Source of the DNA: Escherichia phage vB_EcoM-Ro121c4YLVW
DNA length: 64,000 nucleotides
Sequence record: NC_052654.1
Strand: one strand, 5' to 3'
The notes under the pieces are model-generated. The model searched no databases. It had not been told where the DNA came from and saw only the letters and a list, made by a program, of their open reading frames with translations. Each line of letters begins with the position of its first letter. The first letter of the stretch is position 1. Shown here one piece after another: positions 33,757 through 62,927 of this stretch. The position numbers and the translations under genes are program-made.

Positions 33757-33835
33757 TGGAGGCGGGAATCGGATTTGAACCGATGATCTCCAGCATATGA
33801 AACTGGCGAGGACGACCAGACTCCTCTATCCCGCT
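33757..33835 (-). tRNA. tRNA-Met (anticodon CAT)
   Basis: hand-folded cloverleaf; loop TTCATAT; T-arm ATCGG-TTCAAAT-CCGAT; CCA encoded; ends approximate. Confidence 0.7.
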
Positions 33836-33841
33836 ATTATG

Positions 33842-33913
33842 TATCCCGTGCTGGATTCGAACCAGCATCACAATAAGCTGTGGAACTCTTATCCTGTAAG
33901 TCTAACGGGAAAC
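33842..33913 (-). pseudogene. degenerate tRNA-like element
   Basis: canonical T-arm GCTGG-TTCGAAT-CCAGC and pairing acceptor strands but too short; no canonical anticodon arm; no CCA. Confidence 0.3.
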
Positions 33914-33987
33914 TGGTTGTTTCGACAAGAATCGAACTTGTGTCTCACGATTATCAGTCGTGGGTTCTACCATTGAACTACGAAACA
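33914..33987 (-). tRNA. tRNA-Ile (anticodon GAT)
   Basis: acceptor TGTTTCG/CGAAACA; stem CACGA/TCGTG; loop CTGATAA; CCA encoded. Confidence 0.8.
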
Positions 33988-33993
33988 TTTAAT

Positions 33994-34070
33994 TGGTCGG
34001 GACGGAGTGATTCGAACACTCGACCTCTCGCTCCCAAAGCGAGCGCACTACCAAGCTGTGCTACGTCCCG
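33994..34070 (-). tRNA. tRNA-Pro (anticodon TGG)
   Basis: acceptor CGGGACG/CGTCCCG; stem CTCGC/GCGAG; loop TTTGGGA; CCA encoded. Confidence 0.85.
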
Positions 34071-34163
34071 TGATAACATTCTAAAGGTACACCGCAAAAG
34101 AAAGTGTTCGGCGGCTCCTCGTTTTTAACTTCACACTTAAGGTAGTGACTCACCTTTGTTATA

Positions 34164-34239
34164 TGGCTGGTCTGTCTGGATTTGAACCAAACCTACGACA
34201 GTCAAAGTGTCGTGTGCTACCGGACTACACTACAAACCA
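34164..34239 (-). tRNA. tRNA-Gln (anticodon TTG)
   Basis: U1-A72 acceptor; stem CGACA/TGTCG; loop CTTTGAC; CCA encoded. Confidence 0.8.
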
Positions 34240-34337
34240 ATAAATCATTTAATGAAGGGCAACCAGAAGAAGTGTGAGAGAAGGAGAAAACCATGAGTAA
34301 AAGAGAAAGTTTTCTGGCAACCCTTTATTAAATAATT

Positions 34338-34411
34338 TGGAGCGTTCTACGAGGATCGAACTCGTGCCGCCGACTTGGAAGGACGGAATGCTACCGCTAC
34401 ACCAAGAACGC
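34338..34411 (-). tRNA. tRNA-Gly (anticodon TCC)
   Basis: acceptor GCGTTCT/AGAACGC; loop CTTCCAA; T-arm ACGAG-TTCGATC-CTCGT; U73; one stem mismatch. Confidence 0.65.
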
Positions 34412-34422
34412 CATATATATTT

Positions 34423-34452
34423 ACTATACTACATTTTACTATTTGTTGTCAA
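34423..34452 (-). promoter_or_regulatory. sigma70-like promoter inside tRNA cluster
   Basis: minus-sense TTGACA, 18 nt, TATAGT just upstream of tRNA-Gly 5' end. Confidence 0.5.
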
Positions 34453-34725
34453 GACTTTTATTGATTGGGACAGTGACGAGTATCCCGTTGGGTGACTAGC
34501 CCTACGTTCGGTAAGCTAACTTAAAATAATACAAAACCAAAGTCAAATATTATTCTTCGTTGCTGTCGATGGGAGAGCCGCTTCTCATTTTGCCCCATCC
34601 AACCCTACTCCGGTCAAGTTTCGGGTGACTCTTTTTGTGATCAACACAATACTAAGAACACTGTCTTTCGAGCAGACCTTGTGCACAGGATACGACGATC
34701 AATCACAGTGCTCTTAATGTTGTGT

Positions 34726-34800
34726 TGGTGCTCCCACACTGAATCGAACAGAGATCCACGGATTACAAAACCGTTGTAATAGCCATTATACTATAGGAGC
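34726..34800 (-). tRNA. tRNA-Thr (anticodon TGT)
   Basis: acceptor GCTCCTA/TGGGAGC; loop TTTGTAA; CCA encoded. Confidence 0.7.
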
Positions 34801-34806
34801 AATGCT

Positions 34807-34884
34807 GGGACTCGGCAGGATTCGATACCTGCAATTCCAGAAGCCTATTGGCGACTGGGGGGTTTACCTTAACTCTACAAGTCC
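34807..34884 (-). pseudogene. degenerate tRNA-like element
   Basis: pairing acceptor strands and T-arm-like GCAGG-TATCGAAT-CCTGC (8 nt loop) but no anticodon arm; no CCA. Confidence 0.3.
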
Positions 34885-34891
34885 ATAATTC

Positions 34892-34977
34892 TGGCGATGA
34901 GTATAGGATTCGAACCTATATTGTTCTTTCGAACACGGATTAACAGTCCGCCGCTTAAACCATTCAGCCAACTCATC
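34892..34977 (-). tRNA. tRNA with Asn anticodon arm (GTT) and long type-II variable arm
   Basis: 86 nt; acceptor GATGAGT/ACTCATC; arm GCGGA-CTGTTAA-TCCGT; extra arm GTTC-GAAA-GAAC; G73; CCA encoded. Confidence 0.6.
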
Positions 34978-34983
34978 TTAATT

Positions 34984-35071
34984 TGGTGGTGAGTGATGGA
35001 GTCGAACCACCCGAATCGCAATGATAACAGATTTACAGTCTGCCCCGCTACCCCTACGGAATTAACTCACC
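34984..35071 (-). tRNA. tRNA-Tyr (anticodon GTA)
   Basis: 88 nt type II; acceptor GGTGAGT/ACTCACC; loop CTGTAAA; A73; CCA encoded. Confidence 0.8.
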
Positions 35072-35201
35072 TAAATACTAATATTTAAATTCTTTTTAAA
35101 ATAGCCAGTGTTCACACCACTAACTATGAGGTATCGGTAAAGTGGTTACCGCCACTTGCCGAAGATTTACTCTGCTAAAGTAAGCTACATTAAAAAGAAC
35201 T

Positions 35202-35287
35202 TGGCGGTAGATGTAGGACTCGAACCTACACGCCGTTTCCGACTACAGTTTAGCAAACTGTCGTGGCTACCATTTCACCAATCTACC
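35202..35287 (-). tRNA. tRNA-Ser (anticodon GCT)
   Basis: 86 nt type II; acceptor GGTAGAT/ATCTACC; loop TTGCTAA; CCA encoded. Confidence 0.85.
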
Positions 35288-35292
35288 TAATC

Positions 35293-35383
35293 TGGCGGAA
35301 GGAGGGAGAGTCGAACTCCCAAGGCTCTTTCAAGCTCGGCGGTTTTCAAGACCGTTTTCGTCGCCACATCGATTTGCCCTTCC
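35293..35383 (-). tRNA. tRNA-Ser (anticodon TGA)
   Basis: 91 nt type II; loop CTTGAAA; T-arm GGGAG-TTCGACT-CTCCC; CCA encoded. Confidence 0.85.
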
Positions 35384-35391
35384 ATACTTAT

Positions 35392-35421
35392 AATCTAACA
35401 TAAAATAATGTTTGTTGTCAA
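35392..35421 (-). promoter_or_regulatory. sigma70-like promoter inside tRNA cluster
   Basis: minus-sense ATTGACAA then TTAGATT about 17 nt later, just upstream of tRNA-Ser(TGA). Confidence 0.45.
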
Positions 35422-35627
35422 TAGTTTTTTAAAACATTTTACCATGAATGGTGACTCCACCAACCCCCGTTCTCCACGAACGGTGCTCTTCGAGCATTTA
35501 TGTCTTCTAATATAACCGTGGCCTTTGTTTATAATGTCTGACATACTTGCCTCATTCTCTGCCACCATGATCAGTAGTGGGTTCAAATCACTTGAGCTAA
35601 TTCATGTTAAAATGTTCTGGTGTCTTT

Positions 35628-35702
35628 ACAAGGAATCGAACCTTGACTAAGAGTTTAGAAGACTCCTGTGCTATCCATTACACCATAAAGACTTTGGTGG
35701 CC
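35628..35702 (-). tRNA. tRNA-Arg (anticodon TCT)
   Basis: acceptor GTCTTTA/TAAAGAC; loop CTTCTAA; CCA encoded. Confidence 0.8.
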
Positions 35703-35704
35703 CT

Positions 35705-35779
35705 GGCTGGTTTCGATCCAGCTACCTATCGGTTATGAGCCGACAGCTCTCCCATTGAGCTACAGGGCCATAAATGTGG
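35705..35779 (-). tRNA. tRNA with CAT anticodon, tRNA-Ile2 (lysidine) -like
   Basis: acceptor GGCCCTG/CAGGGCC; loop CTCATAA; resembles E. coli tRNA-Ile2 as recalled; CCA encoded. Confidence 0.75.
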
Positions 35780-36975: not shown

Positions 36976-37227
36976 CATCAACAACCTAAAACCTTAACTC
37001 GCTGCGCTCGTTAATAGATTTCTAGGGTAGCATACTTCGAACACAAAAGTCAAGAGTTTTATTAAAATTATTTTCTGTGTGCAAAAACCTTGCTTAAACA
37101 GGTAGCAATAGTATAGCCTATAACATAAGCTTCATAAGAGGCTCGTAGAGCAAGTTCACTTACTAGGTAAGGTGATTTATCATCTTATATATAAAAAGTG
37201 CGTCAGAGACGCGTTTAGGAGGCTAGA

Positions 37228-50670: not shown

Positions 50671-51669
50671 ATGACAAAACAGATTTCGGCTAGTATTATT
50701 GCGCATTCCATCACTGAAGACGGAAAAGAGATTGTAACTTTCGAACTTGAATATCCACGTATTATTCATTCAGAACTGATGACTCACCGCCTGTTCAGTC
50801 GTAACGCTGCTTCTAGCCGTGCTATACCTGTTAAAACATTGATCGAAATGGTGCGAAATCAGCCTGCTCGTCCTTATCGTTTTGGGGCTAACCAACCTGG
50901 TATGCAGGACAAAGGTGTTGACCATGATGCTCTTATTGATGCAGGTTATACTGCTCAAGAGTGGTGGGATCTTGCCGCGCTTAGTGCAGCACGTTTTGCA
51001 GAAGAATTCTCTTTGGCAGGGTACCACAAACAAGTTGCAAACCGTCTTCTGGAACCTTTCCAACGAATTAAAACAGTTCTGACAGCAACAGAATATGAAA
51101 ATTTCTGGTGGCTACGTGATGACAAAGAAGCCGATCCTACTATCGAAGCTTTGGCTAAAGAGATGCACAAAGAGTATGAAGGATCTACACCAGAAGTGCT
51201 GAAACCAGGGCAATGGCACACACCTTATGTAGACCATTTCTATGATAGTATTGGCACAGAAGGTGACGATCATTTTGTTTTTGGTGGATACTACGTTCAA
51301 GATGAATCTGGAGAAGTTGTTGTGCTTACTTTGGAAGAAGCCAAAGCTATTTCAGCTTCGTGTTGTGCACAGGTTAGCTATCGTCGTTTAAATGCAACTA
51401 AAGATAAAGCTTTAGATATCTATGGTCGTTTGCTGACTGGGCGTAAGGTTCATGCTTCTCCGTTTGAACATCAAGCTACTCCAATGCAAGAAACATGCGA
51501 ACAATATGGAGAGAACTGTTTTGAAGATTTGTTTATCAATGCTCCTTGGGATTTTAACTCTTGGGAACCAGGTATTACCCATGTAGATCGTAATGGTAAG
51601 TTTTGGTCTGGCAATTTCAAAGGCTGGATTCAACATCGTCAACTTTTAACAAATCATACTAAATGGTGA
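50671..51669 (+). CDS. thyX: ThyX-like flavin-dependent thymidylate synthase (atypical)
   Basis: ThyX-like THR-x7-SSR where RHR-x7-S is expected; 332 aa, longer than typical ThyX. Confidence 0.5.
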   Translation: MTKQISASIIAHSITEDGKEIVTFELEYPRIIHSELMTHRLFSRNAASSRAIPVKTLIEMVRNQPARPYRFGANQPGMQDKGVDHDALIDAGYTAQEWWDLAALSAARFAEEFSLAGYHKQVANRLLEPFQRIKTVLTATEYENFWWLRDDKEADPTIEALAKEMHKEYEGSTPEVLKPGQWHTPYVDHFYDSIGTEGDDHFVFGGYYVQDESGEVVVLTLEEAKAISASCCAQVSYRRLNATKDKALDIYGRLLTGRKVHASPFEHQATPMQETCEQYGENCFEDLFINAPWDFNSWEPGITHVDRNGKFWSGNFKGWIQHRQLLTNHTKW

Positions 51670-54686: not shown

Positions 54687-54694
54687 TGAAACTA

Positions 54695-54716
54695 GGGGCT
54701 TCGGCCCCTTTTTATT
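54695..54716 (+). terminator. intrinsic terminator/attenuator between nrdA and nrdB
   Basis: GGGGC-TTCG-GCCCC followed by TTTTT. Confidence 0.5.
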
Positions 54717-54730
54717 GAGGAGAATTTTAA

Positions 54731-55816
54731 ATGGCAGCAATTAATTTACACAATGAAGTTTACAAAACAGGAAAATATCCAGTATTTTTAGGGGAACAAT
54801 TAGGGATTTTTGATTCTGTTAACGTAACTTATCCAGAGATGCACAAACTCTACAAACTTCAAAAAGCACAAGATTGGGATGAGAATGAAGTCAATCTGGA
54901 TCAAACACGTAAAGATTTCGTAGCTTGTTCTAAAAACAACTATGATGTTATGATTAAAAACTTATCGTTCCAATGGGAAAATGATTCTCTTGCAAAATCA
55001 ATCATCACTTTGTTCTCTCCATTCTTGAGTAACAATGAAGCCTGTGCTATGATGATGAAGCAGAGTGAAATGGAAGTTCTCCATGCGTTAACGTATTCTG
55101 AAATAATCCGTCAATGTACTCCAGATCCAATCGAAGTCATCAATCAGATTATGATTAATGATAAAATTTTCAATCGTATGGGTATCATTGCTGATATCAT
55201 GGGTCAGTTGGAAGAAGCTGGTCATAAGTATGCTCTAGGATTGATTGAAGCTAACGATGAACTTCGACTGCTGATTCTTAAAGGGATGGTAGCCCTGATT
55301 GGATTAGAAGGTATTCAGTTTATATCTTCCTTCTCTGCTACTTTTGCTATGGCAGAACAACAACTGTTTGTTGGGGCTTGTAAACTGATCCAGAAAATTA
55401 TGCTAGATGAAATCTTGCATGTTAAGATGGATTACGCTGTAATTGATGCATTGATGCATGACCCAATTTGGCGTAAAATTTACGAAGATAATATTGAAGA
55501 GTTGACTTTGATCCTCGACACTGTTGTTGAACAAGAGGAACAGTGGTGTGACTACCTGTTTAGTGAAGGGCGTTTTATTGTAGGTCTTAACGCCGAATTG
55601 TCTAAACAGTGGGTTTATTTCAATGCTGCTCCTATTTATCGTCGATTGAAAATGAAAGCCAAGTTTAAAGCACCTAAACATAGTCCTTTAGCTTGGATGG
55701 AAAAATGGTTGAATCCTGATTTGATTCAGTCAGCAGCCCAAGAGATTCAGTTAACTAATTACAAATTGAATTCAGCTAACAAAGATCTCTCTGATGATGA
55801 GGAGCTTGACTTCTAA
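54731..55816 (+). CDS. nrdB: ribonucleotide reductase class Ia beta subunit
   Basis: 361 aa ferritin-like; immediately downstream of nrdA. Confidence 0.8.
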   Translation: MAAINLHNEVYKTGKYPVFLGEQLGIFDSVNVTYPEMHKLYKLQKAQDWDENEVNLDQTRKDFVACSKNNYDVMIKNLSFQWENDSLAKSIITLFSPFLSNNEACAMMMKQSEMEVLHALTYSEIIRQCTPDPIEVINQIMINDKIFNRMGIIADIMGQLEEAGHKYALGLIEANDELRLLILKGMVALIGLEGIQFISSFSATFAMAEQQLFVGACKLIQKIMLDEILHVKMDYAVIDALMHDPIWRKIYEDNIEELTLILDTVVEQEEQWCDYLFSEGRFIVGLNAELSKQWVYFNAAPIYRRLKMKAKFKAPKHSPLAWMEKWLNPDLIQSAAQEIQLTNYKLNSANKDLSDDEELDF

Positions 55817-56025
55817 TGATTTTGAGATGTGTTGGTATAATCGACACATTCAAAGACGTTTTTGATAAAGGGGCTTCTTATGAAGCCTCTGAAATGAAGA
55901 ATGGTTTTTGTGATGTATTCGGTAAACGCCTGAAGAAAAACGGCGATCCTTGGCTAGGAGTTATGTCTTGTGGTCATATTATTGTAAATGGTGTTGCCAA
56001 ATTTGAAATAATTAAGGAGGAATAG
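55816..56025 (+). CDS. hypothetical small protein
   Basis: 69 aa ORF. Confidence 0.45.
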   Translation: MILRCVGIIDTFKDVFDKGASYEASEMKNGFCDVFGKRLKKNGDPWLGVMSCGHIIVNGVAKFEIIKEE

Positions 56026-56177
56026 TGGCTGAAAAACTTATTTTTTGTCCTGTGTGCGGTGGGACGGGACAGATGGAAGTGGAAATTATGGTAACATTTC
56101 CTTGCCTGAATTGTCATGGTGAGGGGCGAGTAGTAGTCTTTGAAAAAGAAGGGTTGGAGGTAGAAGATGGAGAGTGA
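56025..56177 (+). CDS. small zinc-ribbon protein (50 aa)
   Basis: GTG start after AAGGAGG; CPVCGG...CLNCHG; below track size cutoff, hand translated. Confidence 0.4.
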   Translation: MAEKLIFCPVCGGTGQMEVEIMVTFPCLNCHGEGRVVVFEKEGLEVEDGE

Positions 56178-56320
56178 AAAAGAGTATGTCCGCATTCCAC
56201 GAGAATTAACAGATCACATTGCAGAAGCAATAGCTTTCGAAGCTAGATGTTGTGGAGGTATTGCTTACGATATTTATGAAGCAATTATTAAAGCTGCTCA
56301 AGAAGAGGAGGAGATGAATA

Positions 56321-56647
56321 ATGGGTATTGATATCGAATGGCGTATGTTACAGGGTGCACCATATGATAAATGGAAAGAAATATTTGGAGACGACCCACA
56401 AGTTGAAGACCAGTTCGATGGGGACTTTAATTGGTTTCTCTGCGAAGGTTTGGGCTTGGAAAACATTTCCCCGTGGTACGATGCAGATCCTGAAGATTGT
56501 GTCTTCGGTGTCAAGCTGTGTAGCGGCTGTGGTGCTTGTGCCATAGACCTCACAAGCTTAAATAAAAAAGCGAATGAGATCTATTTTGAACTGCTTAATA
56601 AGTATAATATTGAAACTGAAACATTAGTATCACAAAACGTCTGGTAA
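56321..56647 (+). CDS. hypothetical Cys-containing protein
   Basis: 108 aa ORF with CSGCGAC. Confidence 0.5.
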   Translation: MGIDIEWRMLQGAPYDKWKEIFGDDPQVEDQFDGDFNWFLCEGLGLENISPWYDADPEDCVFGVKLCSGCGACAIDLTSLNKKANEIYFELLNKYNIETETLVSQNVW

Positions 56648-56656
56648 GGAGAACTG

Positions 56657-57649
56657 ATGCGCTATCTGGTAACAGGTGGTCTTGGTTTTATTGGGAGTGC
56701 CGTGGTGCGCTCTCTTTGTCAAGATCCTAATAACGAAGTTTTTGTCGTTGATAAGATGAGCTATGCAGCAGATATTGAGAATGTAGGCGATATCACTCAC
56801 GTTAAACTAAGCATGACAGATTTGGCAAACGAAGCCCAAGTAAAAAGTTTAGTAGTAGAGTGCAATCCCGATTTCATCATTCACTTAGCGGCAGAGAGTC
56901 ATGTGGATAATTCTATCAAGAATCCACGAGTTTTCATCGACTCCAATATTATTGGTACATACAATTTATTGGAAGCTGCAAGGCTCCTCCCAAAGAATAA
57001 ACTGAAGATGTTCGTACACGTCTCCACAGACGAAGTGTACGGCGATATGGCAGACTCTGGCGTTCCCTTTACCGAAGAGACAGCTTATGCCCCTTCAAGC
57101 CCATACAGTGCGTCTAAGGCAGCATCTGACCATCTTGTGAAAGCTTGGCACCGTACCTACGATTTGCCTGTTGTGATAACCAACTGCTCCAATAACTTTG
57201 GACCTTATCAACATCCAGAAAAGCTGATCCCAAAAATCATCACAAGTATTTTGACGAATAAAGAGATTCCGGTGTATGGTAAAGGCGATCAGGTGCGAGA
57301 CTGGCTTTTTGTTGAGGATCATGCGAGAGCTATTCTTCAAGTGGCAACAGGTGGAGAACCAGGCCAAACGTATAACGTTGGAACACGTAATCCCAAAACC
57401 AATATGGAGATCATCTATATGGTTTGTGACTACATGGATGCTGTACATCCAGAAGCAGGAACCTACCCTTCTTCCAACTTGATAACTTTTGTTGAAGATC
57501 GTAAAGGACATGACTTGCGTTATGAAATCAATCCTTCTAAGATAGAGTCTGAACTGGGTTGGAGTGCAAACTCTACATTTGAACAAGATCTCTACTCAAC
57601 GATTGAATGGTACTTAAACAACCCTCAATGGTGGAGTGAGAAGATTTAA
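56657..57649 (+). CDS. rmlB: dTDP-glucose 4,6-dehydratase
   Basis: Rossmann GGLGFIGS, catalytic YSASK; close to E. coli RmlB as recalled. Confidence 0.9.
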
Positions 57650-57657
57650 GGAGGGCT

Positions 57658-58536
57658 ATGAAAGGTATTATTTTGGCTGGAGGAAGTGGAACCCGCCTTC
57701 ATCCGGTAACACGCAGCGTGAGCAAGCAATTGCTCCCTGTGTATGACAAACCCATGATCTACTACCCTTTATCGGTATTGATGTTGGCTGACATTAAGGA
57801 TATCTTAATCATCACCACACCAGGCGATCAGGAAGACTTTGAGTATCTTCTCGGAGATGGGTCTATGTTTGGGATAAAACTCACTTACGCAATCCAATCC
57901 GAGCCACGAGGTCTTGCGGACGCTTTCATCATCGGTAAAGATTTTATCGGAGAAGACTCTGTTGCTCTTATTTTAGGTGACAACCTATTCTTCGGACAAA
58001 GCTTTGGTAAACTACTGATTAACGCCAGTGAGATGGTAGATGTTTGGGGCGGAGCTTGTATCTTCGGGTATTTGGTGAAAGATCCTGAACGATTCGGTGT
58101 GGTTGAATTTGGGAGTAATCGTCAAGCTATTTCTATTGAAGAGAAACCTGAAAATCCTAAATCAGATTACGCTGTCACAGGTTTGTATTTCTATGATAAC
58201 TCTGTTGTTCAACGTGCATTAGAAGTAACCCCTTCCGCGCGTGGAGAACTGGAGATCACAGATATCAATCGCAGCTACCTCGAAGACAGGAAGTTACAAG
58301 TGGAAGTTCTCGGACGAGGATTTACTTGGCTTGACACAGGAACACACGCCAGTCTGATGGAAGCTGGTCAATTCGTGCAGACTATTGAGAACCGGCAAGG
58401 ATTGAAGATTGCGTGCCTGGAAGAAATTGCTTTCAAAAAAGGGTGGATTTCTTTAGAGACTTTGGTGTATCATGGAAACTCACTGAAGAAAACAGAATAC
58501 GGGCAATACCTACTCAAATTAGCGGAGAGAAAATGA
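57658..58536 (+). CDS. rmlA: glucose-1-phosphate thymidylyltransferase
   Basis: N-terminal [16 protein letters not shown] signature. Confidence 0.9.
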
Positions 58537-59099
58537 AAGTAGAAAAAACAAAAATTGAAGGTGCGGTAATTATCAAACCAGACGTTTATAAAGATGATCG
58601 TGGTTTCTTTTTAGAAACATATAATGAACAAAAATACGAAGATATTATTGGTAGACAAACTTTCGTTCAAGATAACATGTCTAAATCAAACTTCGGTGTT
58701 TTGCGAGGAATGCACTTTCAAACAAATAATCCGCAAGGTAAGCTTGTTCGTTGTGTAAGTGGGGAAGTATTGGATTTCGCTGTAGACCTACGTAAAGATA
58801 GTCCTACTTACGGTGCTTGGGACGGTGTTGTTCTTCGTGCACGACACCATACACAGTTCTGGCTTCCACCTGGTTTGGCACATGGTTTTATAGTGTTGAG
58901 TATGGATGCTATCTTCGAATACAAATGCACAACTCCATACGACCCTTCCAGCGAACAAAGTTTACGTTGGGATGATCCTGATATAGGGATTGATTGGGGC
59001 TTCGATATGATTTTTGACGAAGATTTTAAACCTATCTTATCAACAAAAGATGCAATGGCTAAGTCTTTTCAACAGCTACGTAGCGAGGGTGTATGCTAA
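58533..59099 (+). CDS. rmlC: dTDP-4-dehydrorhamnose 3,5-epimerase
   Basis: [11 protein letters not shown] and LRGMHFQ motifs; ATG at 58533 overlaps rmlA stop. Confidence 0.85.
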
Positions 59100-59935
59100 C
59101 ATATCTGGTATTGGGCGGTAATGGACAACTGGGACAAGCTTTACGTAAAGTGGCTCCTTCAAATGTATCTTTAATTTATCCTAAAGAACGTGTAGATATT
59201 ACAAATTTTGAAGCTGTGCGAAACGCTATTGTTGAAGATTATGTAGATGGTGTTATTAATTGCGCTGCTTATACGGCTGTAGATAAAGCAGAACATGATT
59301 TTGCTACTGCTTTGGCTGTTAATTCCTACGGCCCTGCAAACATTGCAGCAGTGTGCAGTAAACTTAAAATTGATTTTGTGCATATTTCTACAGACTATAT
59401 TTTTAATTACTCTCATCCTATTTTTGAAGATACTACACCTAACCCAATAAACAATTATGGGTATACGAAAGAACTTGGTGAAAAAATGGTGCGAGGAGTT
59501 AACCCAAATGCATATATTATTCGAACAGCCTCGGTATATAGCGAATTTGGAAATAACTTTCTAAAAACCATGTTGTCTCGCTATAATGATGGACAACGTG
59601 ATTTTATTATTGTTGCTGATCAGTTCTCTTGTCCAACATATGCTCCAGATTTAGCAGAAGCTATTTTTGAAGTATTAAAAACAGGTTGGTCAAGGTCTGT
59701 TAAGACTTACCATTTTGCAGGAAGCCATCTTATTTCTTGGGCGGAGTTTGCGGAAAAGATCTTGACACAGATGCCAGAACCTGTTAAGATATCGGCGGTA
59801 TCAGCTTCAACCTATAATGCTCCAGCAGCACGTCCGGTGAAGTCACAATTAGTAACCAGTCACTATCTTACAAAATCAGATTTAAATAAAGGTATTGAAC
59901 GGTCTTTAGCAGTATTACTTAATAAGGAGAGGTAA
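59093..59935 (+). CDS. rmlD: dTDP-4-dehydrorhamnose reductase
   Basis: LVLGGNGQLGQAL and HISTDYIF motifs. Confidence 0.85.
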   Translation: MLTYLVLGGNGQLGQALRKVAPSNVSLIYPKERVDITNFEAVRNAIVEDYVDGVINCAAYTAVDKAEHDFATALAVNSYGPANIAAVCSKLKIDFVHISTDYIFNYSHPIFEDTTPNPINNYGYTKELGEKMVRGVNPNAYIIRTASVYSEFGNNFLKTMLSRYNDGQRDFIIVADQFSCPTYAPDLAEAIFEVLKTGWSRSVKTYHFAGSHLISWAEFAEKILTQMPEPVKISAVSASTYNAPAARPVKSQLVTSHYLTKSDLNKGIERSLAVLLNKER

Positions 59936-60195
59936 TGGAATTTGTAATTTTTGGTAAACCTAACTGTCAATTTTGCGAAATGTCAAAACAACTATTAACC
60001 ATGCGCAATAAACAGTTTGAATATTTAAGTCTTGACCAAGACTACGATTTAGAATCAATGACTAAAACAGTTGTTGATCTTACCGGAGTTCCTCCACGCA
60101 CATTTCCACAAATTCTGTCTGAAGTGAACGGGGAGGTAACATACGTAGGCGGTTTTACCGAACTGCGTGATCTCATGGCTCAAATTGCGGAGTAA
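59935..60195 (+). CDS. glutaredoxin/NrdH-like redoxin
   Basis: 86 aa with CQFC active site. Confidence 0.7.
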   Translation: MEFVIFGKPNCQFCEMSKQLLTMRNKQFEYLSLDQDYDLESMTKTVVDLTGVPPRTFPQILSEVNGEVTYVGGFTELRDLMAQIAE

Positions 60196-60357
60196 CACTT
60201 ATGAAAAGTAAACAGAAACGTAAGATCTTTTCTCGTGCTTTGGCAAATGAGCTGAAGTCCAACATAAAGAAAACGAAACCAAAACGTGAAACTTCTCCAG
60301 AACATCTGTTGTTTAATGAGTTGGATCACGGAGTAGGAGACGACGAATAGGAAGTAA

Positions 60358-60858
60358 ATGGCTAAAGTAGTAGATGAGTTTGATATGCTACGAGTCGATG
60401 AAGGACTGAAGCTTACTGTTTATCAAGACCATCTTGGTTATTGGACAGTCGGCATAGGACACCTTCTGACTAAAATAAAAGATAAAGCAAAGGCTATTCA
60501 AATCTTAGATAATCTCCTTGGTCGTAAGACCAATGGAGTTATCACAGAAAAAGAAGCCCGTCAAATCTTTGCTGACGATGTTGCAAAAGTGAAGAGAGAC
60601 ATAAAAAACAGTGCTATCTTATCACCAATCTATGATAAGGTGAGTGATACTCGTAAATTGGGAATAATCAACATGGTTTTCCAGTTGGGGTTAAAAGGTG
60701 CTGAAGGGTTTAAAAATAGCTTGACTTTAATCAGCAATGCATATTATACTCAAGCAGGTAAAAACATGCGTAAAAGCCGATGGTATAGCCAGACGCCAAA
60801 CCGTGCTGAACGAGTAATTAAAGTTCTGACTTCTGGAACTTTAGATGCTTACAACTAA
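60358..60858 (+). CDS. T4-type lysozyme (endolysin)
   Basis: MLRVDEGLKLTVYQDHLGYWTVGIGHLL, near-identical in pattern to T4 e N-terminus. Confidence 0.9.
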   Translation: MAKVVDEFDMLRVDEGLKLTVYQDHLGYWTVGIGHLLTKIKDKAKAIQILDNLLGRKTNGVITEKEARQIFADDVAKVKRDIKNSAILSPIYDKVSDTRKLGIINMVFQLGLKGAEGFKNSLTLISNAYYTQAGKNMRKSRWYSQTPNRAERVIKVLTSGTLDAYN

Positions 60859-60862
60859 TAAA

Positions 60863-60880
60863 GGGGCTTCGGCCCCTTCT
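60863..60880 (+). other. GC stem-loop after lysozyme gene
   Basis: GGGGC-TTCG-GCCCC followed by TTCT, no clean U tract. Confidence 0.35.
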
Positions 60881-60895
60881 AAAAGGAGTGCTACT

Positions 60896-61654
60896 ATGGG
60901 AAATAAAACCGCAGCTAAAACACAACGGCAGAAACTGGCTAATTCAGCAAAGATTGAAAGCCGTTATGCAGCAAAAGCGGTAGGTAATGACGATTACCGT
61001 TTAGATGAATTTATGCCTGAAGGGGACCAAAATAAGATTGTTCAAAGCATGATTTGGAATGATCTGACTGTTGTAAATGCTCCGGCAGGGACTGGTAAAA
61101 CCTCTGTTGCTTTATGGAAAGCTTTGCAGATGCTTCGTTCAGGAGACTTCCGTAAACTACTTTTTATCAAGAACCCTACTGAAGTCGGAGATGACCAGAT
61201 TGGTTTCTTGTCTGGGGATAAAACAGATAAACTAGCAGCACACTATGAATCTACAAAACGTATTTTCCAGCAATTCATGACAGCCAACAAATTGGAAAAC
61301 GATATTGGATCAGGTAAGATCGAATTGAATATTCCTAACTATTTGTTGGGGGCTACCCTGGATAATACAATCGTCATTATTGACGAAGCACAACTCATGT
61401 CAACAGAAACACTTAAACTTCTTATTGAACGTGCAGGTATTAATACGCATGTTATTGTATTAGGCGATGTTCGCCAGACATATGCAATTAAAAAACGTAG
61501 CAATGGTCTGCATCAAATTTTGGAACTTTTATATCCAGAAAATGAAGAAGGTGTTCGTGAGCCAATTGTAGATTTTATTGGATACGTTGAACTGACAACG
61601 GACGATAATAAACGTGGACGTTTGTCTAAACTGATTACTGAAGTGTTTATTTAA
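60896..61654 (+). CDS. phoH: PhoH-like ATPase
   Basis: Walker A APAGTGKTS, Walker B VIIDEAQ; ATG at 60896 with SD AAGGAG. Confidence 0.8.
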   Translation: MGNKTAAKTQRQKLANSAKIESRYAAKAVGNDDYRLDEFMPEGDQNKIVQSMIWNDLTVVNAPAGTGKTSVALWKALQMLRSGDFRKLLFIKNPTEVGDDQIGFLSGDKTDKLAAHYESTKRIFQQFMTANKLENDIGSGKIELNIPNYLLGATLDNTIVIIDEAQLMSTETLKLLIERAGINTHVIVLGDVRQTYAIKKRSNGLHQILELLYPENEEGVREPIVDFIGYVELTTDDNKRGRLSKLITEVFI

Positions 61655-61686
61655 TAATGTGGCAGGGAAGCCATTTATAAGGAGGA

Positions 61687-62190
61687 TTGATGGGTGTAGC
61701 AACAATAGCTATCGGAAGAAGCGGTATAGATGAGTGCTATCAAACGGGACTCGTAAAACCTAACGAATTTCGTCAAATTTGTGTAAACCATATTGAAAAA
61801 GAGATTGCTCTTACTTTAGAGAATATGACCCTCCGAGATAAACTGGAAATGTTTAAATGTTGGTGTCTAGGAGAAGATTGGCTTTTAAACCATTTTCAAG
61901 AACTTTCTGATAGTAAAGAAAGCTTGTTTGATTGTATAATAGGAATAGCTGGCTCCGATCCTAGCCTTCTGCACATAACAGAAGAAGAGGCGAAGTTACT
62001 GTTCTTAAGTAATTTGTTTAATAAGAAAGCACTGCTTGTTCGTGATTGTAGTGATCTTCTTAATAACCCGCTCGCAACGTCTGATCAAATTTTTGTTGAC
62101 AAAGAGACACTACGTGCGATAGAATACATCTGCAAATATGTGAATGGCGGGAAAGCGGTTCTTAAAACATTAACAGAGGAGGAAGAATAG
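61687..62190 (+). CDS. hypothetical protein
   Basis: 167 aa ORF upstream of HslV-like gene. Confidence 0.5.
   Translation: MMGVATIAIGRSGIDECYQTGLVKPNEFRQICVNHIEKEIALTLENMTLRDKLEMFKCWCLGEDWLLNHFQELSDSKESLFDCIIGIAGSDPSLLHITEEEAKLLFLSNLFNKKALLVRDCSDLLNNPLATSDQIFVDKETLRAIEYICKYVNGGKAVLKTLTEEEE
62096..62125 (+). promoter_or_regulatory. possible internal sigma70-like promoter upstream of HslV-like gene
   Basis: TTGACA, 18 nt, TAGAAT inside 3' end of gene 61687..62190. Confidence 0.3.
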
Positions 62191-62882
62191 TGACGACAAT
62201 TATTGCAACCAAAAATAAGATTTTGAGTGACGGTAAGGTAACTTTTGGTGGACGTGTAGATTCTATTAATTTCAAAAAGGTCCGAAAAATTGGAGATTAC
62301 CTTGTAGGTGGTGCTGGTCGTCTGACCTCCGTGCTTTCTTTCTTTCAATGGTTTGAACAAAATCTACAGTGCGAAGCAGCACGTGATGCTGTCCCTGGTT
62401 TGATGATTCACTCTGATCCAGATAAAGAAGATGAAGAGTTTATTGCACTTGTTGTTCATCCAGACGGACGTATTTTCCTGCACGAAGGTAATAACCCAAC
62501 ACGTGCATATCCGATTGATGAAGAATATTATGCGGTAGGAAGCGGGTCAGACTTTGCTTTAGCTGCTCTTGATGCAGGGGCAACACCAGAACAGGCTATG
62601 GAAGTAGCTAAAAAGCGAGATGCTTTTTCTGGTGGTGAAACATTTATTGAAGAACAAGACGAGATTATTGAATTAACAGATGATGATTTAGAAAACTTCT
62701 CCAAAGAAGAATTGATCAATCTTTTGAAATTCGGTAATCCCTACGGTGAAGAAGAACCTCGTAACGTGGCAGGTAACGAGGCGGATACTGAAGAAAAATC
62801 TGTTGCAGAAAACAACTTGACTTCTAAATCTGAAAATATTAATCTCGTAAATGTGGCGGATTTCGAAGGAACCGCTATTTAA
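62190..62882 (+). CDS. HslV/ClpQ-like Ntn-hydrolase protease with acidic C-terminal extension
   Basis: N-terminus MTTIIA (Thr after initiator), KKVRK, GGAG and GSG segments align by eye with E. coli HslV; 230 aa. Confidence 0.65.
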   Translation: MTTIIATKNKILSDGKVTFGGRVDSINFKKVRKIGDYLVGGAGRLTSVLSFFQWFEQNLQCEAARDAVPGLMIHSDPDKEDEEFIALVVHPDGRIFLHEGNNPTRAYPIDEEYYAVGSGSDFALAALDAGATPEQAMEVAKKRDAFSGGETFIEEQDEIIELTDDDLENFSKEELINLLKFGNPYGEEEPRNVAGNEADTEEKSVAENNLTSKSENINLVNVADFEGTAI

Positions 62883-62888
62883 CAAACT

Positions 62889-62902
62889 GCCCCTTCGGGG
62901 GC
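62889..62902 (+). other. GC stem-loop after HslV-like gene
   Basis: GCCCC-TTCG-GGGGC. Confidence 0.3.
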
Positions 62903-62927
62903 ATTTCTTAAACATAGGAGATTAATA

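Follow-up and report, generated by a model that had tools for sequence, protein, structure and literature searches.

Operons for the synthesis of deoxythymidine diphosphate (dTDP)-L-rhamnose are already known from bacteriophages of the subfamily Stephanstirmvirinae: phAPEC8 (JX561091 / NC_020079), phi92 (NC_023693) and about 120 other members carry the same four genes, rmlB, rmlA, rmlC and rmlD, in the order and place described here. Olsen et al. (2020) regarded the pathway as complete, called its position in the DNA metabolism region "peculiar" and speculated that hydroxymethylated nucleotides might be glycosylated (PMC7552041). In phi92-like phages a "putative dTDP glycosylation machinery" was pointed out by Maffei et al. 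(2021), who found the same phages "exceptionally susceptible" to restriction-modification (RM) systems (PMC8594841). We have analysed a stretch of 64,000 nucleotides from Escherichia phage vB_EcoM-Ro121c4YLVW (NC_052654.1; hereafter the window), in which rmlB, rmlA, rmlC and rmlD follow each other at 56657-59935 on the plus strand. Open reading frames (ORFs) were called on this strand, and coordinates are those of the whole stretch unless another accession is given. The operon and the 16-kb region upstream of it are 98-99% identical at the DNA level to dozens of Phapecoctavirus genomes (97.8-98.5% to the records with annotated rml operons), the near-identical relatives including phAPEC8, ESCO5/13, Schickermooser, ukendt and tuntematon, and by its sequence the window phage belongs to this genus of phAPEC8-like E. 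coli myoviruses with genomes of about 150 kb (Stephanstirmvirinae). Compared with the annotated rml operons of the subfamily there is no difference of substance, the window holding the four-gene rmlBACD form and not the two-gene rmlCD form. The operon, which an earlier note on this DNA had described, is not new: it is annotated in about 45 near-identical GenBank records, most records naming the four genes, and both of the above papers discuss it. What our work adds to an operon of known presence is a glycosyltransferase (GT) cluster, variants that have kept rmlCD only, and evidence for an old, phage-specific lineage.

Taken together our results lead us to favour, with somewhat better than even confidence, a working rmlBACD pathway that feeds a phage GT cluster and so gives rise to a rhamnose-containing glycan on an acceptor other than DNA. 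The first support for this reading comes from the enzymes themselves. As criterion of identity we used a score above the curated cut-off of the respective NCBIfam equivalog model, which was reached by RmlB (TIGR01181, 431.6 bits for a cut-off of 365.1), RmlA (TIGR01207, 468.4 for 360.65) and RmlC (TIGR01221, 224.6 for 155.75), and marginally by RmlD (TIGR01214, 235.9 for 224.05). Pfam assigns all four proteins to the same families. The catalytic residues were judged by aligning each protein to solved structures. RmlA, aligned to 4HO0 (E 6e-126), keeps the G8-GSGTRL14 loop, K23, D108 (LGDN), K163 (EEKP) and D226 (WLDTGT). RmlB, aligned to 1G1A of S. enterica (E 3e-111), keeps the GGLGFIGS NAD+ site, and its T124-D125-E126 and Y150/K154 correspond to T133-D134-E135 and Y167/K171 of that structure. 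In RmlC, residues H61, K70, Y130 and D173 of the cupin active site stand opposite H63, K73, Y133 and D170 of S. enterica 1DZR (E 4e-56), and RmlD, compared with 3SC6 and 1VL0 (E about 1e-43), keeps the NAD(P)H site G8xxG11xxG14, T100 (STDY) and Y122xxxK126. No inactivating substitution was found at the catalytic residues checked in the four alignments. The earlier note had read the region as four Rml genes forming a complete RmlB-A-C-D pathway within the nucleotide-metabolism region of the phage, and scores and residues bear this out: rmlBACD encodes a complete and apparently functional dTDP-L-rhamnose pathway. For the last enzyme, the sequence does not separate RmlD from Tll-type reductases, that is a predicted L-rhamnose from a predicted 6-deoxy-L-talose product.

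The earlier note had recognised no GT in the window, and this stands, as a tblastn search of the window with the four GTs of its relatives gave no significant match, nor does the corresponding part of Schickermooser have an annotated GT. Its conclusion that the acceptor could not be named for want of a GT was an artefact of the window edge, since genomes of the same genus have four consecutive GT genes about 70 kb away. In Schickermooser this cluster has primase/helicase on one side and an endolysin on the other, with a DNA polymerase gene close by. All four proteins have PHROG glycosyltransferase matches (E 1e-79 to 1e-149); searched by sequence against the PDB and NCBIfam they gave no match. 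Two of them, of 314 and 315 residues, are paralogues (41% identical) with weak Pfam matches to the GT-B family Glyco_trans_1, and have distant relatives in Arthrobacter and Streptomyces phages. A third, of 227 residues (the gp233 homologue), carries an invariant FIFDDD motif and is 26-28% identical to GTs of cluster F1 mycobacteriophages over about 130 residues (about 55% of its length; E about 1e-8). Its predicted fold is GT-A, with a predicted local distance difference test (pLDDT) score of 87, and the best match among solved structures is STIV A197, a glycosyltransferase of an archaeal virus, followed by TarP/TarS, collagen GTs and WrtF, with the Listeria rhamnosyltransferase RmlT lower. 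The fourth, of 187 residues, gives a compact GT-A model (pLDDT 92.6) whose nearest structures are the protein O-glycosyltransferases LH3, ColGalT1 and ppGalNAc-T, together with RmlT and SpsA. No membrane segment was detected in the cluster, the maximum hydropathy over 19 residues being at most 1.65. In their distribution over the phage groups the GT genes match rmlC, with 63 records at 95% identity or above, about 60 phi92-like phages and Klebsiella relatives. The four-GT cluster is the likely user of the rml sugar.

The natural variation of the operon points to what this sugar may be. RmlC is present at 95% identity or above in 63 phage records and RmlA at 90% or above in 46, and rmlB and rmlA are missing from 17 of the 63 Phapecoctavirus records, among them Mt1B1_P17, anhysbys, nepoznato, ZCKP1, ETEC-TG, SF1-1 and WPEC1/2/6; phage ESCO37 has likewise been described without rmlA and rmlB (PMC10269720). 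In Mt1B1_P17 intact rmlC, with rmlD behind it, starts 9 nt after the upstream gene for the 108-residue protein, and the products of the two genes are identical to those of the window at 187 of 188 and 277 of 280 residues, respectively. The deletion site lies at about 116975-117055 of NC_052662.1 and corresponds to 56640-56660 and 58515-58536 of the window. The junction reads GTCTGGTAAGGAGA followed by GAAAATG, a hybrid of the ribosome-binding sites (RBSs) that precede rmlB and rmlC in the window, joined at their common GGAGA, so that exactly two genes are taken and the RBS before rmlC is restored. rmlC and rmlD are kept in all 63 Phapecoctavirus records, and the phages without rmlBA retain the GT cluster. 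E. coli itself makes dTDP-4-keto-6-deoxyglucose by RffH and RffG for the enterobacterial common antigen (ECA), while RmlC and RmlD are present only in strains with rhamnose-containing O-antigens. At least one DNA match to the phage rml query was found in 5,419 of 5,426 E. coli genomes, and the matches listed fall mainly in its rmlB-rmlA part. Host RffH and RffG thus probably supply the 4-keto intermediate to phages that have rmlCD only. Because rmlC and rmlD are always retained while rmlBA, which duplicates host RffH/RffG, can be lost, we infer that the phage would need the finished 6-deoxy-L-hexose and not the 4-keto intermediate. A separate case is Escherichia phage AV125 (OR352955.1, 124688-125556), where the rmlA match is broken in two and that of the operon falls one base short of the query; the break reflects either a frameshift or a sequencing error.

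The operon seems to have been with these phages for a long time. The Justusliebigvirus phi92 shows the same order, nrdA-nrdB-small ORFs-rmlB-A-C-D-grx-lysozyme-phoH, where grx is the glutaredoxin gene. Between the window and phi92 the amino acid identities are 63% for RmlB, 71% for RmlA, 63% for RmlC and 55% for RmlD, next to 84% for NrdB, 56% for Grx, 78% for the lysozyme and 76% for PhoH in the flanks. Synonymous sites are saturated, apparent synonymous differences exceeding saturation for rmlB, rmlA and rmlC, and for rmlD, the only rml gene with an estimable dS, dN/dS is 0.28. The Vequintavirinae phage PVP-SE1 has the order thyX...nrdA-nrdB-gp140-grx with no rml genes in between, and its glutaredoxin is homologous to that of the window (E 4e-14). 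Because phi92 has the rml genes at this site and PVP-SE1 has homologous flanks without them, the operon is an insertion between nrdB and grx, older than the divergence of the Stephanstirmvirinae genera. A recent capture from the host was rejected: none of 5,426 complete E. coli genomes matches the query above about 65% DNA identity, the best reaching about 64% over 40% of it, and the host gene order, rfbB-D-A-C against B-A-C-D in the phage, also contradicts such a capture. When RmlB was searched against 5.8 billion proteins, the 23 best matches were 61-95% identical and 315-331 residues long, many of them on contigs of 143-157 kb; bacterial proteins came next, with at most 58% identity, 351-357 residues and, where named, an origin in Pseudomonadota. 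In a neighbour-joining tree 26 short, phage-type RmlB sequences were set apart as a clade from their 24 nearest bacterial counterparts in 91 of 100 bootstraps, and the phage RmlB proteins appear to be a clade of their own with no recent host origin.

A pattern-limited scan of 100,044 species genomes yielded no close bacterial donor; the best RmlD in it was 43% identical, and most of the best matches were from Bacteroidota. The loci nearest for RmlD are not the nearest for RmlA, RmlB and RmlC, so that the donor cannot be traced to one lineage. Independent acquisition by the two phage genera was considered because their RmlA proteins share just 71% identity, a level close to that with some bacteria, and because the G+C of rmlB and rmlA is raised; it is disfavoured by the RmlB tree and the shared short length of RmlB. 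The G+C fraction is 0.43-0.44 in rmlB and rmlA, 0.39 in rmlC, 0.37 in rmlD and 0.39 in the whole window, and 0.35 in all four genes of phi92. Raised G+C and the excess of synonymous differences may hint at a separate history of the rmlBA half. Among the records that are 97-99% identical to E. coli Phapecoctavirus over the region are MG065650 (Campylobacter phage B15), OP562383 (Acinetobacter phage vB_AbaM_ABPW7), MH252123 (Klebsiella phage ZCKP1) and MW175890 (Dompiswa phage TSP7_1). The host labels of these and other such records look doubtful, or the phages were carried over from E. coli.

From these data we propose the following scheme. In the infected cell the four rml genes, translationally coupled and probably co-transcribed with nrdB and grx, would provide RmlA to join glucose-1-phosphate and deoxythymidine triphosphate (dTTP), RmlB to dehydrate the product to dTDP-4-keto-6-deoxy-D-glucose, RmlC to epimerise it at C3 and C5, and RmlD to reduce C4. 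The end product would be dTDP-L-rhamnose; its C4 epimer, dTDP-6-deoxy-L-talose, is the less likely outcome. In this scheme an ancestor of the Stephanstirmvirinae acquired the operon between nrdB and grx, and purifying selection has maintained it since. The dTDP sugar would most likely be the donor for the four soluble GTs of the phage, two GT-B paralogues and two small GT-A enzymes, and these may assemble a glycan containing rhamnose, for which virion proteins would be the acceptor or, as second choice, glycans of the host envelope. Virion proteins are a tentative first guess, favoured because the gp233 homologue resembles the F1 mycobacteriophage GTs and because the best structural matches of the small GTs are a viral GT and protein O-glycosyltransferases. 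That the whole forms a self-contained system, in which the phage makes its own dTDP-L-rhamnose and uses its four GTs to put a rhamnose glycan on capsid or tail proteins, is a reading that we regard as fairly unlikely.

Several points weigh against a pathway that feeds the GT cluster. Our search of the literature, including full text, found no enzyme, nucleotide-sugar or glycan study of the operon in these phages. RmlD lies barely over its cut-off, which leaves the predicted stereochemistry of the product at C4 uncertain. We infer the GT cluster of the window phage itself from its relatives, and the proposed link between rml and GTs is a common phage distribution within one subfamily, with loci about 70 kb apart, that could reflect shared ancestry. 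The fold matches of the GTs are generic to GT-A, with template-modelling (TM) scores of about 0.45-0.55, and include enzymes that use uridine diphosphate (UDP) and guanosine diphosphate (GDP) sugars, so that they point to no particular donor or acceptor; the resemblance of the gp233 homologue to the mycobacteriophage GTs is also weak and partial. Lastly ESCO37, which has no rmlBA, grows on laboratory hosts, where the full pathway is therefore dispensable (PMC10269720).

The alternative that survives best concerns the host envelope. Here the GTs would alter the lipopolysaccharide (LPS) core, the O-antigen, ECA or another glycan, and the change could block superinfection or the adsorption of progeny to debris. 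Enzymes of the kinds in the cluster, Glyco_trans_1-type GT-B and small GT-A, are typically those that make LPS and polysaccharides, and the fold matches include the wall-teichoic-acid GTs TarP (which is prophage-encoded), TarS and RmlT, as well as WrtF, an O-antigen fucosyltransferase. Surface glycans are recognised by these phages through numerous fibres and spikes, one of which degrades colanic acid, and an early-to-middle placement of the genes would suit a change made before lysis. The composition of the cluster speaks against this, as it has no flippase, polymerase, initiating phosphoglycosyl transferase or membrane segment; turnover of the surface within one lytic cycle would also be limited, and serotype-converting GTs are known mainly from temperate phages. 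We regard envelope remodelling as rather unlikely.

Modification of the phage DNA was the reading proposed by Olsen et al. (PMC7552041): dTDP-rhamnose would be transferred onto a hydroxymethylated base, as in T4, and protect the genome from host nucleases. The rml genes do lie in a region of DNA and nucleotide metabolism, the GT cluster is placed between primase/helicase and DNA polymerase genes, and an atypical ThyX-like gene is nearby. The gp233 homologue has weak and partial matches to the TET-associated glycosyltransferase (TAGT) family of Pfam (E 1.3e-3, below the cut-off), to PHROG 842, named 'beta-glucosyl-HMC-alpha-glucosyltransferase' (E 5e-6 over 40 residues), and to TAGT models in BFVD at rank 23-24. 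The TAGT and PHROG 842 matches, however, are confined to the region that binds the nucleotide in a generic GT-A fold, and ThyX-like genes are also present in PVP-SE1 and rV5, both of which have no rml genes. No hydroxymethylase for deoxycytidine or deoxyuridine monophosphate (dCMP, dUMP) and no TET/JBP oxygenase is annotated in the 151-kb Schickermooser genome. Phages that share these rml and GT genes have been found 'exceptionally susceptible' to RM (PMC8594841), a result for phi92-like phages and not for Phapecoctavirus itself. DNA as the acceptor is thus improbable.

We give equally little credence to plain metabolic support with no tie to the phage GTs, by which the operon would sustain host rhamnose glycans, drain ECA precursors or buffer dTTP. 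The operon stands beside nrdAB, thyX and grx, genes of deoxynucleotide supply with which it is probably co-transcribed, and scattered rml-like 'auxiliary metabolic genes' occur in unrelated cyanophages, in Sphingomonas phage PAU and in Acinetobacter jumbo phages. Yet the retention of rmlC and rmlD in 63 of 63 Phapecoctavirus records, even where rmlBA is missing, argues that the end product is needed; a dTTP sink would oppose genome replication, and four conserved GTs would be left with no obvious donor. The earlier note had proposed modification of host surface polysaccharide, glycosylation of virion proteins or DNA, and diversion of dTTP; of these, DNA glycosylation comes out as least likely, given the restriction-sensitive phi92-like relatives, and dTTP diversion is without support. 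A decaying passenger, left behind neutrally by horizontal transfer and now without function, would fit the 17 of 63 Phapecoctavirus records that have no rmlB and rmlA, the split rmlA of AV125 and the viability of ESCO37 (PMC10269720), but is very improbable and largely refuted by the conservation pattern, with four ORFs and their catalytic residues intact across genera at 55-71% amino acid identity and saturated synonymous sites, a deletion of exactly two genes that restores the RBS before rmlC, and rmlC and rmlD that are never lost.

The features on which the above argument draws are collected in Table 1.

Table 1. Genes and terminator-like hairpins around the rml operon of the window, and the GT cluster of a relative
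Feature	Coordinates	Strand	Remark
Terminator-like GC-rich hairpin with T run after nrdA	54694..54709	+	Likely upstream limit of the transcription unit
nrdB, class Ia ribonucleotide reductase small subunit	54731..55816	+	First gene of the unit containing rml
Four small conserved ORFs (69, 50, 54 and 108 residues)	55816..56647	+	Between nrdB and rmlB
rmlB, dTDP-glucose 4,6-dehydratase, 330 residues	56657..57649	+	TIGR01181
rmlA, glucose-1-phosphate thymidylyltransferase, 292 residues	57658..58536	+	TIGR01207
rmlC, dTDP-4-dehydrorhamnose 3,5-epimerase, 188 residues	58533..59099	+	TIGR01221
rmlD, dTDP-4-dehydrorhamnose reductase, 280 residues	59093..59935	+	TIGR01214
Glutaredoxin (grx)	59935..60195	+	PF00462, E 1.8e-9; downstream flank of the insertion
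Next strong terminator-like hairpin	62888..62903	+	Probable unit end, after lysozyme, phoH and hslV-like gene
Four consecutive GT genes in Schickermooser	NC_048196.1 103701-106845	-	99%-identical relative, about 70 kb from rml

The gene boundaries refine the picture given by the earlier note, which had described stops and starts as overlapping and the operon as lying between nrdAB and a glutaredoxin gene. Overlaps do exist between rmlA and rmlC (4 nt, ATGA), rmlC and rmlD (7 nt) and rmlD and grx (1 nt), whereas rmlB ends 8 nt short of rmlA, with a GGAGG RBS in the gap. Likewise grx follows directly after rmlD, whereas four small ORFs separate nrdB from rmlB. The longest ORF for rmlC starts from GTG 58413, but its TIGR01221 match begins only at residue 42; ATG 58533, with a GGAGAG RBS in front, gives the 188-residue protein, and the same start is annotated in relatives. 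The ORF of 108 residues before rmlB has no family match in Pfam or NCBIfam, and its candidacy as a homologue of PVP-SE1 gp140 was rejected, the sequences not being homologous. One of the four small ORFs shows a CxxC...CxxC pattern. A consensus scan of the plus strand found no strong terminator-like hairpin from 54709 to 62888, and the Schickermooser record has a terminator annotated at the position matching the upstream one (37014-37027). Because the only strong hairpins of this kind on the strand are the two that flank this interval, nrdB, the small ORFs, rmlBACD, grx, the lysozyme gene, phoH and the hslV-like gene look like a single transcription unit. The same predicted unit includes a PhoH-like ATPase (60845-61654, +) and an HslV-like peptidase (62190-62882, +).

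Some further observations were made on the way. The ThyX-like protein of the window (50671-51669, +) has 332 residues, much longer than usual for ThyX, and carries the ThyX motif in a THRLFSRNAASSR version; its model matches are weak (Pfam Thy1, E 5e-8; TIGR02170, 31 bits for a cut-off of 87.9). A cluster of 10 tRNA genes lies at 33757-35769 on the minus strand (Met twice, Ile, Pro, Gln, Gly, Thr, Asn, Ser and Arg), in which the tRNA called Asn (anticodon GTT) has 86 nt, an unusual length for its type. In Schickermooser a tellurite-resistance-like set (TerD, vWA-TerF, TelA, TerC, a phosphoribosyltransferase and a HAD hydrolase) is found at 108-118 kb of NC_048196.1.

Phapecoctavirus and phi92-like phages are common in phage-therapy collections directed against pathogenic E. 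coli. If these phages did carry a self-made rhamnose glycan on the virion or the cell, it could have effects on antibody recognition, clearance, host range and superinfection, and a glycan on the virion would be the first 'glycan coat' in a phage of E. coli or of any Gram-negative host. The natural rmlCD and rmlBACD forms are ready-made strains for comparison.

How does this locus relate to known systems of viral glycosylation and rhamnose synthesis? DNA glucosylation in T4, by hydroxymethylcytosine (hmC) and alpha- and beta-glucosyltransferases, shares with it the position of phage GTs among replication genes. In T4 the donor is host UDP-glucose, a dCMP hydroxymethylase is required, and the modification gives resistance to restriction. 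The modified DNA of T4 is restriction-resistant, whereas the phi92-like relatives of the window phage are restriction-sensitive (PMC8594841) and no hydroxymethylase is annotated in Schickermooser. Cluster F1 mycobacteriophages carry glycans on their capsid proteins (PMC11256854). These phages (Che8) encode GTs of their own, as do the relatives of the window phage, and differ in having actinobacteria and not E. coli as hosts. To our knowledge they carry no nucleotide-sugar pathway. Autonomous glycosylation in giant viruses has been the subject of a review (PMC4691112). Giant viruses, with the UDP-L-rhamnose pathway of Mimivirus and the GDP-sugar pathways of chloroviruses, have both a 6-deoxyhexose pathway and GTs of their own and use them for virion glycans. 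They are viruses of eukaryotes with UDP- or GDP-linked sugars, whereas the phage pathway is dTDP-linked, and the matches of the phage GTs to giant-virus GTs are generic to the GT-A fold. The bacterial RmlABCD/RfbBDAC enzymes of S. enterica, E. coli and P. aeruginosa share with the phage the same four families and catalytic residues, and presumably the same chemistry. They differ in gene order (B-D-A-C in E. coli, B-A-C-D in the phage), in the length of RmlB (350-357 residues in bacteria, 329-331 in phages) and in RmlD, which in the phage is at most 43% identical to the bacterial proteins found in the pattern-limited scan. The bacterial rml genes belong to O-antigen or cell-wall clusters, whereas those of the phage have their place in the nucleotide-metabolism unit of a lytic virus.

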